NCBI GenBank assembly: GCA_038889235.1
Contig: JAWAHN010000002.1
Coordinates: 254,356 to 286,355, forward strand
Source of the DNA: Candidatus Jordarchaeales archaeon
GTDB lineage: Archaea; Asgardarchaeota; Jordiarchaeia; Jordiarchaeales; Freyrarchaeaceae
Direction: 5' to 3'
Length of the DNA: 32,000 nt
Numbering within the stretch: position 1 is the stretch's first letter; every line of letters starts with the position of its first letter. The translations under genes were made by a program, and so were the position numbers. Under the pieces are notes generated by a model, which was not told the DNA's origin, ran no database searches, and saw nothing but the letters and a program-made list of their open reading frames with translations. This document shows, piece by piece, positions 10,404-12,455 of this stretch.

Positions 10404-10447
10404 CTCCTTTTTCGTCTAATTGGGCTAGAGAGCCGGGGTGGCCGAGA

Positions 10448-10478
10448 ACACTTTCTCCCATTTTAGAGAGTGTCGGAA
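10448..10478 (+). other. tRNA intron 1 (31 nt, D-loop, position 16/17)
   Basis: BHB: central helix CCGA(10442-45)/UCGG(10473-76), bulges GA|A and AA|A, intron stem CACUUUCU/AGAGAGUG (8 bp), outer G10-C pair. Confidence 0.9.
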
Positions 10479-10486
10479 ACGGTGAG

Positions 10487-10507
10487 TCCCTTTTCTGGGG
10501 GCATTAA
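10487..10507 (+). other. tRNA intron 2 (21 nt, D-stem, position 23/24), relaxed BHB
   Basis: Central helix GGUG(10481-84)/CAUU(10502-05) with two G-U pairs, bulges AG|U and AA|G, intron stem CCCUU/GGGGG; the exon-side outer pair is absent (C-C). Removal restores the D-stem 3' strand AGGC. Confidence 0.8.
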
Positions 10508-10521
10508 GCAGCGGACTGCAG

Positions 10522-10534
10522 TGTTCACGCAGTC
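10522..10534 (+). other. tRNA intron 3 (13 nt, canonical position 37/38)
   Basis: Central helix CUGC(32-35)/GCAG(10529-32), bulges AG|U and UC|A, anticodon stem as outer helix, G-C closing a UUCA loop. Confidence 0.95.
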
Positions 10535-10556
10535 ATCCGCCACACCGGGGTTCAAA

Positions 10557-10574
10557 ACCTTCAAAAGGTGAAAA
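10557..10574 (+). other. tRNA intron 4 (18 nt, T-loop, position 59/60)
   Basis: Central helix UUCA(10551-54)/UGAA(10569-72), bulges AA|A and AA|U, intron stem CCUU/AAGG, T-stem as outer helix. Confidence 0.9.
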
Positions 10575-10623
10575 TCCCTGCCCCGGCTCCAACTCATTTT
10601 CCGGCTATGTGAGATGGTGTTTT

Positions 10624-11247
10624 ATGCCTGTCTCTCTAACTCCAAGTGTTGTCAAGAAAATTTCTTTGGCAGTTGACGCACTCTTAACTATCTGGTCTAT
10701 TATTCGTTCCTCCTCTCCGAGCTATACACTGAAAGATGAGGAAGAAAAAGAGTTCGTTGAAAAGTTGTCATTGGCCTACCAACTACTTTCAGATCTGGCT
10801 TCCACTATGGGTGTTAAACAGCAACGTGAGAGCGGACTCGACGAAGTATTTTCAAAGTTGAAGCCGGACGAAACACTCATCCTCGTCGTTTCGCCGTCTT
10901 TCATGAGGCAACTCGTGAAGGCTGGTGTTCCGAGAGAAAAGGTAGTTGCTGTGGGGGGGCCGCTAACTAGCGAAGACGTCAAATTACTAAACCCTAACAT
11001 CTCTGAAGAATCCGTGGCAAAAATTGAAGAGCGTCTAAAGTCTTTTTGGAGGGAGCTTGAAAGAAAAGCTAAGGGTATACGTACAGTGCTCCTGGTTCTA
11101 GAGAAGGGTGGTAAGGTTGACGAGATGATAGCCAGTCGCTCAAACTTGTTATCTGAAAAATTAGGAGTTGAAGTCAAGCCAATTTACCTGAGTGGTTTTG
11201 AAGATCAGTTCATAAGTGCTCTACCACAATTCTTTAGAAAGGAGTGA
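10624..11247 (+). CDS. SepCysE-like (DUF2100 family) transsulfursome scaffold protein
   Basis: Probable start ATG 10624. Recalled family pattern: N-terminal helical hairpin (SPSYTLKDEEEKEF) and C-terminal LILVVS...GVPREKVVAVGGPLTSEDVKLLNPNISEE. Size ~207 aa; directly upstream of pscS. Confidence 0.75.
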   Translation: MPVSLTPSVVKKISLAVDALLTIWSIIRSSSPSYTLKDEEEKEFVEKLSLAYQLLSDLASTMGVKQQRESGLDEVFSKLKPDETLILVVSPSFMRQLVKAGVPREKVVAVGGPLTSEDVKLLNPNISEESVAKIEERLKSFWRELERKAKGIRTVLLVLEKGGKVDEMIASRSNLLSEKLGVEVKPIYLSGFEDQFISALPQFFRKE

Positions 11248-11252
11248 GCTGT

Positions 11253-12455
11253 ATGCCCCTTAGTCCCGACCGGCTTTTAAAGTACTACAACCTCACGAGA
11301 AACACCGAAATAGAAGCCATAAACCTCCACCCGATTCAAAGCGGAGGAAGAGCGGGGAACTATCCTGGGGTTGTTAAAGCAGTATTGAACTTCATAGACG
11401 GGTATAGCACGTGCGACTACTGTATTAAAGGTAGACTTAATGAAATCGAAACCCCTCCCCTACGCGACTTCCACAGCGACCTAGCAGAGTTCGTAGAAAT
11501 GGACGAAGTACGCCTCCTACCCGGGTGCAGACAGGCTCAATTTGCCACTTTCCACAGTCTAGCGAAACCCGGCGACTACATAGTTATTGACTCCTTAGCA
11601 CACTATTCAACATACCTCTCCGCCGAGAGAGCTGGCCTAAAAATAGTCGAGGTCCCCAACACAGGCTTCCCTTATTTCGAAGTACCACCCGAACTCTACG
11701 CTGAAAAAATAGAAGAAGTCAAAAGGGAGACTGGAAAACCACCAGCCTTAGTCTTCCTCACTCACGTTGACTACTCTTATGGTAATCTCGCTGACGCCAA
11801 AAAGGTTGCAAGGATATCTCACGAGTATGATGTACCTTTCGTCCTAAACTGCGCATACACGGTAGGCAGAATGCCTGTCTCCGGACGGGAGCTGGAAGCC
11901 GACGTTATAACTGCCTCGCTGCATAAATCTTTTGCATCACCAGCTCCGTCTGGGCTCATCGCAGCTAAGGAAGAATATGCAAAACAAATATTCAGGAGAT
12001 CTACGGTGAAAGGGGAGTGGAGTGGAAGGACGTTTCCCAACAAAGAAGTGGAGCTCCTAGGATGCACTCTTCCAGGATGCGTCGCTATAGGTGTAATGGC
12101 TGCATTTCCATATGTGGTTGAAAGAGTAAAACATTGGGATGAAGAAGTGAAGAAAGCTCGTTACTTCTCAAGCCAGTTAACGAGGATAGAAGGTGTCATC
12201 CAGCTCGGGCAGACCCCACACAACCACGACCTCCTTCACTTCGAAAGCTCCTCATTCTTCGAGATCGCTAAAAACCATCCTAGAAAAGGCTTCTTCCTCT
12301 ATGACGAGTTGAAATCCCGAGGAATTGTAGGTGTTCAACCAGGGCTTTCGAAATCTTGGAAGTTATCAACTTATGGCCAAAGCTGGGAGAACGTTAAAAG
12401 GGCAGCCCAAGCATTTCTTGAAATAGCTGAAAAATACGGCATCCCTGTCTCGTGA
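11253..12455 (+). CDS. pscS: O-phospho-L-seryl-tRNA:Cys-tRNA synthase (SepCysS)
   Basis: INLHPIQSGG, DGYSTCDYC (conserved CxxC), DSLAHYSTY, HVDYSYGNL, ASLHKSFASPAPSG (PLP Lys), KEVELLGCT (third conserved Cys). Confidence 0.93.
   Translation: MPLSPDRLLKYYNLTRNTEIEAINLHPIQSGGRAGNYPGVVKAVLNFIDGYSTCDYCIKGRLNEIETPPLRDFHSDLAEFVEMDEVRLLPGCRQAQFATFHSLAKPGDYIVIDSLAHYSTYLSAERAGLKIVEVPNTGFPYFEVPPELYAEKIEEVKRETGKPPALVFLTHVDYSYGNLADAKKVARISHEYDVPFVLNCAYTVGRMPVSGRELEADVITASLHKSFASPAPSGLIAAKEEYAKQIFRRSTVKGEWSGRTFPNKEVELLGCTLPGCVAIGVMAAFPYVVERVKHWDEEVKKARYFSSQLTRIEGVIQLGQTPHNHDLLHFESSSFFEIAKNHPRKGFFLYDELKSRGIVGVQPGLSKSWKLSTYGQSWENVKRAAQAFLEIAEKYGIPVS

Follow-up and report, generated by a model that had tools for sequence, protein, structure and literature searches.

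Four BHB introns in the tRNA-Cys(GCA) gene that precedes the SepCysE-like and SepCysS genes of Candidatus Jordarchaeum

The locus at 10432-10591 (+ strand) of the DNA stretch analysed here, a window of 32,000 nt whose coordinates are used throughout unless a contig is named, is very probably a functional gene for tRNA-Cys(GCA), the only one of a Candidatus Jordarchaeum species, and is split by four BHB introns (I1-I4). In the source genome it lies at C2:264787-264946. Its 160 bases divide into 77 nt of exon and 83 nt of intron, the latter inserted at tRNA positions 16/17, 23/24, 37/38 and 59/60, and the shortest of the five exons has a length of 8 nt (Table 1).

The spliced 77-mer is called by ARAGORN as a tRNA-Cys(GCA) with G37, U73 and an encoded CCA, a canonical cloverleaf being restored. 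It is a class I cloverleaf, whose anticodon loop reads CUGCAGA, with U33 and a purine at 37. Run on the unspliced precursor, the same program calls no tRNA, while Rfam gives no match in the window and the locus is absent from the genome-wide tRNA-model matches even at E<=10. A preliminary description of this DNA had derived the same cysteine tRNA, with GCA, G37, U73 and CCA, and had expected automated annotation to miss or mis-call the gene; both points are borne out, ARAGORN and Rfam being blind to the unspliced locus. Upstream, the motif of a TATA-like box, GTTTAAAAG/A, recurs at equal offset in the 3 other Jordarchaeum species and in the sister genus, and the box presumably acts as the promoter of the tRNA-Cys gene. 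The short T-run on the 3' side could possibly serve as a weak archaeal termination signal, and read-through into the next gene would also be compatible with it.

Table 1. Coordinates of the tRNA-Cys gene, its neighbours and related genes of the source genome (positions of the window, or of the contig where one is named).
Feature	Position	Strand	Description
TATA-like box TTTAAAAA	10396..10403	+	about 32 nt 5' of the mature tRNA end; read directly
Exon 1	10432..10447	+	16 nt; acceptor 5' strand, U8, G9, D-stem 5' strand, A14-A16
Intron 1 (I1)	10448..10478	+	31 nt at 16/17; alternative register 33 nt at 15/16
Exon 2	10479..10486	+	8-nt micro-exon; D-loop G18 G19 to G23
Intron 2 (I2)	10487..10507	+	21 nt at 23/24
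Exon 3	10508..10521	+	14 nt; G24-G37, including anticodon GCA
Intron 3 (I3)	10522..10534	+	13 nt; canonical 37/38 position
Exon 4	10535..10556	+	22 nt; A38 to A59
Intron 4 (I4)	10557..10574	+	18 nt at 59/60, T-loop
Exon 5	10575..10591	+	17 nt; U60, T-stem 3' strand, acceptor 3' strand, U73, encoded CCA
Short T-run	10597..10600	+	3' of the tRNA-Cys gene; read directly
DUF2100 / SepCysE-like gene	10609..11247	+	Pfam PF09873, 69.7 bits; directly 3' of the tRNA-Cys gene
SepCysS (Sep-tRNA:Cys-tRNA synthase)	11244..12455	+	TIGR02539 493 bits (cut-off 365); NF006810 545 bits
Two EndA paralogues	C1:1056164-1056754; C3:444014-444601	+; -	34% identical to each other
Further four-intron tRNA genes (Asp-GTC, Phe-GAA, CAT)	C1:741358-741516, C1:758710-758860, C1:907829-908038		reconstructed in the source genome

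BHB motifs were scored by comparing the 4 exon bases that end 2 before the 5' cut with the 4 intron bases that end 2 before the 3' cut. At all 4 junctions the central helix is paired 4/4 between two 3-nt bulges, and the cut falls after the second bulge nucleotide. The central helix is CCGA:TCGG in I1, with an intron helix (h') of 8 bp; GGTG:CATT in I2, including two G-U pairs, with an h' of 5 bp; CTGC:GCAG in I3, where the 5-bp anticodon stem forms the outer helix (h); and TTCA:TGAA in I4, which has a 4-bp h' (CCTT:AAGG) and the 5-bp T stem as h. A flanking helix (h or h') of at least 2 bp is hence found at all four introns. When the introns were shuffled, a canonical motif appeared at the exact boundary with frequencies of 0.001, 0.018, 0.009 and 0.014 for I1 to I4, which makes a chance origin of the motifs unlikely. 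A reference-free search, which starts from an acceptor stem and CCA and reads the cloverleaf with jumps over any BHB-compatible segment, was also used; among the 103 splice solutions enumerated at the locus, the 16/8/14/22/17 exon split has the top score. The split into a tRNA-Cys(GCA) by four BHB introns at the positions given in the preliminary description is upheld by the BHB geometry (4/4) together with the ARAGORN call, and its exon and intron lengths, 4-bp helices, 3-nt bulges and cut points were reproduced exactly, as was the excess of intron over exon (83 vs 77 nt).

The source genome (G000) was compared with those of three other Jordarchaeum species (G001-G003, of which G002 is Candidatus Jordarchaeum sp. 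LHC_1308), a sister genus (G004), the complete Freyarchaeota SRVP19 chromosome of the same order (Freyarchaeum, CP147778.1; G006) and two more distant Asgard genomes (G016 and G036). The whole locus is present in the three other species-level Jordarchaeum genomes, each time as a single locus, with 76-80% identity, and in the spliced alignment all 4 species carry four introns at the same four positions. The mature tRNA is identical at 75-76 of its 77 positions (97-99%) among these species; their introns, of unequal length, show 53-64% identity. Three positions account for all variation in the mature tRNA, one in the D-loop and two in the variable loop: the sequence of exon 1 is the same in 4/4 species, exon 4 varies solely in the variable loop, and exon 2 shows a single substitution, T20 to C in G002, that keeps the pairing with intron 2.

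Several of the changes within the motifs preserve pairing. The I2 central pair reads T:A, T:G, T:G and C:G across the four species, one of these changes being exonic; in G001 the central pair of I3 goes from G:C to G:T and that of I4 from T:A to T:G; and in the h' of both I2 and I4 a C:G is exchanged with a T:A between species. The three sister Jordarchaeum species show I1 and I2 in a relaxed form, with just 3/4 central pairs. Outside the genus, G004 has introns solely at 23/24 and 59/60, G016 has one intron, at 37/38, and G036 also has one, in the D-loop, while the 59/60 intron is common to Jordarchaeum, G004 and Freyarchaeum, where the locus is syntenic. The mature tRNA-Cys of G004, G016, G036 and G006 (75-77 nt, each from a gene with one to four introns) share 64-66 identical residues with that of the source genome, and the G016 gene reaches 53 bits on the Rfam tRNA model. 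A metagenome scan with the exon1-gap-exon2 pattern returned mostly chance matches; the remaining ones were exact copies of the loci of G002 and G003 and hence gave no new orthologues for covariation. When contigs were scanned with exon 5 (17 nt), most of the matches listed were chance ones from GC-rich bacteria, the useful ones being those of Jordarchaeum and Freyarchaeota.

Concerning the exact boundaries, the same four-intron gene could be processed with I1 cut 1-2 bases away from the position adopted in Table 1, as a 33-nt intron at 15/16 or as a 32-nt one. The mature tRNA would then have 75 or 76 nt, and a D-loop of 7 or 8 nt (AGCGGTG) would take the place of the 9-nt AGAACGGTG. We hold this shift to be possible, if somewhat unlikely. 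The 15|33 solution is among the 103 enumerated, pairing 3/4 central positions and having an h' of 9 bp, and its D-loop has the same length and AGYGG pattern as the intron-free D-loop of G004 (AGTGGCG) and as the D-loop of G036. The base opposite A14 is moreover a C in 3/4 species, giving an A14.C mismatch, and the first I1 base covaries with this opposite base (A:T in the source genome, G:C in the others), which favours pairing between these two over pairing with A14. On the other side, the 16|31 register has in the window a perfect 4/4 Watson-Crick central helix and the best score, and neither A16 nor the A that precedes CGG changes among the 4 species, as expected for exonic bases, whereas the adjacent intronic positions do. 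We retain the 16|31 register here.

The surroundings of the gene relate it to the synthesis of Cys-tRNA. The tRNA-Cys gene, the SepCysE-like gene and SepCysS follow one another in the same orientation (10432-12455), and this order is kept in the four Jordarchaeum species, the sister genus G004 and Freyarchaeum. The SepCysE-like protein has MJ1481 (3wkr/5x6b/5x6c) as its sole PDB sequence match, a weak one (E 0.077); 3wkr is the M. jannaschii SepCysE (PMC5424206). SepRS is encoded in the source genome (526 bits) and in all six genomes G000-G004 and G006. As for CysRS, none is found in the source genome, where the best score of 41 bits against a cut-off of 340 evidently reflects cross-matches to other class I synthetases, and 0/4 Jordarchaeum genomes (completeness 95, 73, 83 and 92%) have one above the cut-off; it is present in G004 and in Freyarchaeum. 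Judged from gene content, Jordarchaeum may rely solely on the SepRS/SepCysS route. The spliced tRNA-Cys has G37, an identity determinant for methanogen SepRS (PMC5424206). Since the genus has SepRS and no detected CysRS, and the gene lies directly upstream of those for the SepCysE-like protein and SepCysS, the tRNA-Cys gene is very probably essential.

The rest of the tRNA set shows the same kind of fragmentation. ARAGORN or Rfam detect just 12-14 tRNAs in the 2.14-Mb assembly (95% complete, 8 contigs), and reference-guided k-mer seeding reached only ~30 loci. With a BHB-aware search at least 29 tRNA genes were reconstructed, all of them interrupted and all with spliced products accepted by ARAGORN, in an inventory that is partial (78 candidate regions left out) and in which the boundaries of individual genes are predicted. 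These 29 genes cover 28 different anticodons plus a second CAT. In this partial inventory, one intron occurs in 8 genes, two in 7, three in 10 and four in 4, with a mean of 2.34 and no intron-free gene; besides tRNA-Cys, four introns are reconstructed in Asp-GTC, Phe-GAA and a CAT tRNA. All well-supported tRNA genes of the genome carry the 3' CCA in their DNA, which renders a CCA-anchored tRNA search workable. The GCA anticodon occurs in 1/29 reconstructed genes, namely the tRNA-Cys locus itself. The search for another tRNA-Cys, which the preliminary description had proposed as a check, was negative in the 95%-complete assembly, both among the 29 genes and by BLAST of the mature sequence, which detected no further exon copy. 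BLAST of the four introns against the genome likewise gave no paralogous copies, and hence no sign of intron copying.

These data bear on the idea that the locus is a decaying or silent relic, with decoding carried out by another tRNA-Cys located outside the assembly. Room for it is left by an assembly that is 95% complete in 8 contigs. Against it, exons are 97-99% and introns 53-64% identical across four species, the cloverleaf and identity features are intact, and the promoter-like box and the synteny with the SepCysE-like gene and SepCysS are conserved. No other GCA tRNA or exon copy is found, and the same single locus is present in three further assemblies. The probable indispensability of the gene also argues against a relic, which we consider very unlikely.

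Folding calculations give a more differentiated view of the individual introns. The precursor folds better than 200/200 shuffles (z = -4.7), and for the primary transcript RNAfold assigns the central helices of I1 and I3 pair probabilities of 0.87 and 0.91, respectively. The central helix of I2 has a probability of ~0 and that of I4 of 0.02 (37 C), both being unformed in the precursor and in every partly spliced intermediate, and in this protein-free nearest-neighbour model, which is a weak test, forming the four BHB motifs together costs 17 kcal/mol relative to the MFE. We read this as a probable dependence of the I2 and I4 motifs on the enzyme or on a tRNA body that is already partly matured, and not as a sign that these introns stay unspliced. 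Alternatively, one insert, most plausibly I2 with its weak G-U-rich helix, might be retained or removed by another route. The RNAfold result for I2 and I4 would agree with this, as would the many D-arm insertions without canonical motifs reported in a recent preprint (10.64898/2026.10.13.758758). However, the D-stem would be destroyed by a retained I2, and the T-loop by a retained I4; in the window the two junctions each show a 4/4 central helix together with an intron helix; exon and intron covary at the I2 central pair (T:A, T:G, C:G); and both introns are conserved into the sister genus, so this alternative appears highly improbable. An assembly or binning artefact that produced a chimeric sequence, conceivable for a metagenome-assembled draft, can be practically dismissed in view of the same architecture in four independently assembled species-level genomes and of identical copies of two loci (G002 and G003) in separate public metagenome contigs.

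For the functional four-intron gene favoured here, the genome encodes a suitable set of enzymes. PF01974 (EndA) matches twice, with 111 and 77 bits. The alpha protein (196 aa) is similar to the catalytic chains of the heterotetrameric enzymes from Aeropyrum and Pyrobaculum (E 4e-47 to 5e-39) and keeps the catalytic His, while the beta protein (195 aa) has a Val at the place where that His stands in alpha. The pair would fit, by its sequence features, a crenarchaeal-type alpha/beta splicing endonuclease, and the two-subunit arrangement is known to cleave relaxed and non-canonical motifs (PMC4033280). An RtcB ligase is also encoded (600 bits).

A maturation pathway can be proposed on this basis. 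Transcription would start from the TATA-like box ~32 nt upstream and give a precursor of ~160 nt, from which the alpha/beta splicing endonuclease would cut out the D-loop, D-stem, anticodon-loop and T-loop introns, RtcB then joining the five exons into a tRNA of ~77 nt with encoded CCA. The I1 and I3 helices are predicted to be stable already in the primary transcript, and I2 and I4 would probably depend on the enzyme or on the partly matured tRNA. The motifs of I1 and I2 both draw on bases of exon 2, and cutting both flanking introns before ligation would free this 8-nt exon; we infer that removal is probably ordered. The mature tRNA would be charged with phosphoserine by SepRS and the product then converted to Cys-tRNA by SepCysS. 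The gene stands at the head of the SepCysE-like/SepCysS unit, and its splicing would include the rescue of the 8-nt micro-exon. More speculatively, and with little probability in our judgement, in a genus that has lost CysRS every Cys-tRNA, and perhaps cysteine synthesis too, would hang on one gene needing eight cuts and four ligations; the splicing of its precursor could then be obligatorily ordered, rate-limiting or regulated and would link maturation of the tRNA with the supply of cysteine.

In reviews up to 2021 the highest number stated for one tRNA gene is three introns (PMC4033280, PMC8450103), and the preliminary description had considered that four might be a record. This suggestion does not stand. 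Valentin-Alvarado et al. 2024 (PMC11291895) report 92-95% of tRNA genes as interrupted in Atabeyarchaeia and Freyarchaeia, and their Suppl. Data 4 includes four-intron genes for Freya Arg-TCT, Ile2-CAT and Leu-GAG and for Atabeya-2 Trp-CCA and Lys-TTT. The preprint of Goswami et al. of October 2026 (bioRxiv 10.64898/2026.10.13.758758), which deals with 90 Asgard genomes including Jordiarchaeaceae, reports for Freyr-, Jordi- and Atabeyarchaeaceae an average of 2.2 intervening sequences in each tRNA gene and as many as five within a single one, with 30% missed by tRNAscan-SE, mostly in the D-arm. Within the present genome, at least 3 other four-intron reconstructions undercut the claim as well. 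Given that four- and five-intron tRNA genes are already reported for the lineage, the tRNA-Cys gene is no record and the known maximum is unchanged.

Among the closest known systems are these Asgard multi-intron tRNAs (PMC11291895; 10.64898/2026.10.13.758758), which share with the present gene the class Jordarchaeia and short BHB-type inserts, many of them in the D-arm or T-loop. In the families described there, inserts interrupt 92-98% of tRNA genes and average ~2.0-2.4 per gene, which compares with 2.34 from the partial count in the source genome, and the alpha/beta EndA pair is a further likeness. Unusual is that all four junctions of this tRNA-Cys are canonical, the figure given in the preprint being 37-58%. 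Suppl. Data 4 of PMC11291895 covers Freyarchaeia and Atabeyarchaeia, not Jordarchaeum.

The preliminary description had framed the gene by comparison with Thermoproteales, which is not the appropriate frame for a member of the Asgard class Jordarchaeia. Multi-intron tRNA genes of that order (Sugahara 2008; Fujishima and Kanai 2014, PMC4033280; tRNAscan-SE 2.0, PMC8450103) likewise have BHB introns at non-canonical positions, which a broad-specificity (alpha-beta)2 endonuclease removes, and an ordered removal is needed where motifs overlap; however, they come from a different phylum, with up to 3 introns per gene and ~0.84-1.5 per gene on average. With respect to the neighbourhood, the clusters of tRNA-Cys, SepCysSn or SepCysE, and SepCysS described by Mukai et al. 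2017 (PMC5424206) likewise place the substrate tRNA beside SepCysS and a SepCysE-family adaptor, and the same work describes a full-length SepCysE-type gene in a selenocysteine-using archaeon. Unlike in those clusters, the clustered tRNA is here a four-intron gene, and Jordarchaeum has apparently lost CysRS altogether.

The gene thus offers a clean, fully canonical case of extreme tRNA-gene fragmentation, with an 8-nt exon, in a lineage where such genes are the rule, and it shows why ARAGORN and Rfam leave such genomes seemingly without tRNA-Cys. As the sole tRNA-Cys found in a genus that has SepRS/SepCysS but no detected CysRS, it would be a good substrate for studying the specificity and order of action of an Asgard splicing endonuclease.

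A direct counterpart exists in Freyarchaeia. CP147778.1 holds at 1326639-1326821 (G006:C1) a 183-nt tRNA-Cys(GCA) gene that also has four BHB introns, after sequential nt 16, 33, 47 and 60, and that is orthologous and syntenic (tRNA, SepCysE-like, SepCysS). The 59/60 and D-loop positions are common to both genes, whereas the other two introns lie at 32/33 and 46/47 in Freyarchaeia and at 23/24 and 37/38 in Jordarchaeum. At the same coordinates Suppl. Data 4 of PMC11291895 has an entry 'Ser AGA, 25.2 bits, 3 introns', and the table contains no tRNA-Cys for Freyarchaeia. The Freyarchaeia tRNA-Cys apparently entered it as a low-scoring tRNA-Ser, so the published tRNA set can probably be corrected. 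The Freyarchaeia genome differs from Jordarchaeum in also having CysRS. As a side observation, a second CysRS-like frame of this genome (G006:C1:2176317-2177573, - strand) scores 324 bits, just below the cut-off, and contains one in-frame TGA; it could represent a selenoprotein, a pseudogene or a case of recoding.
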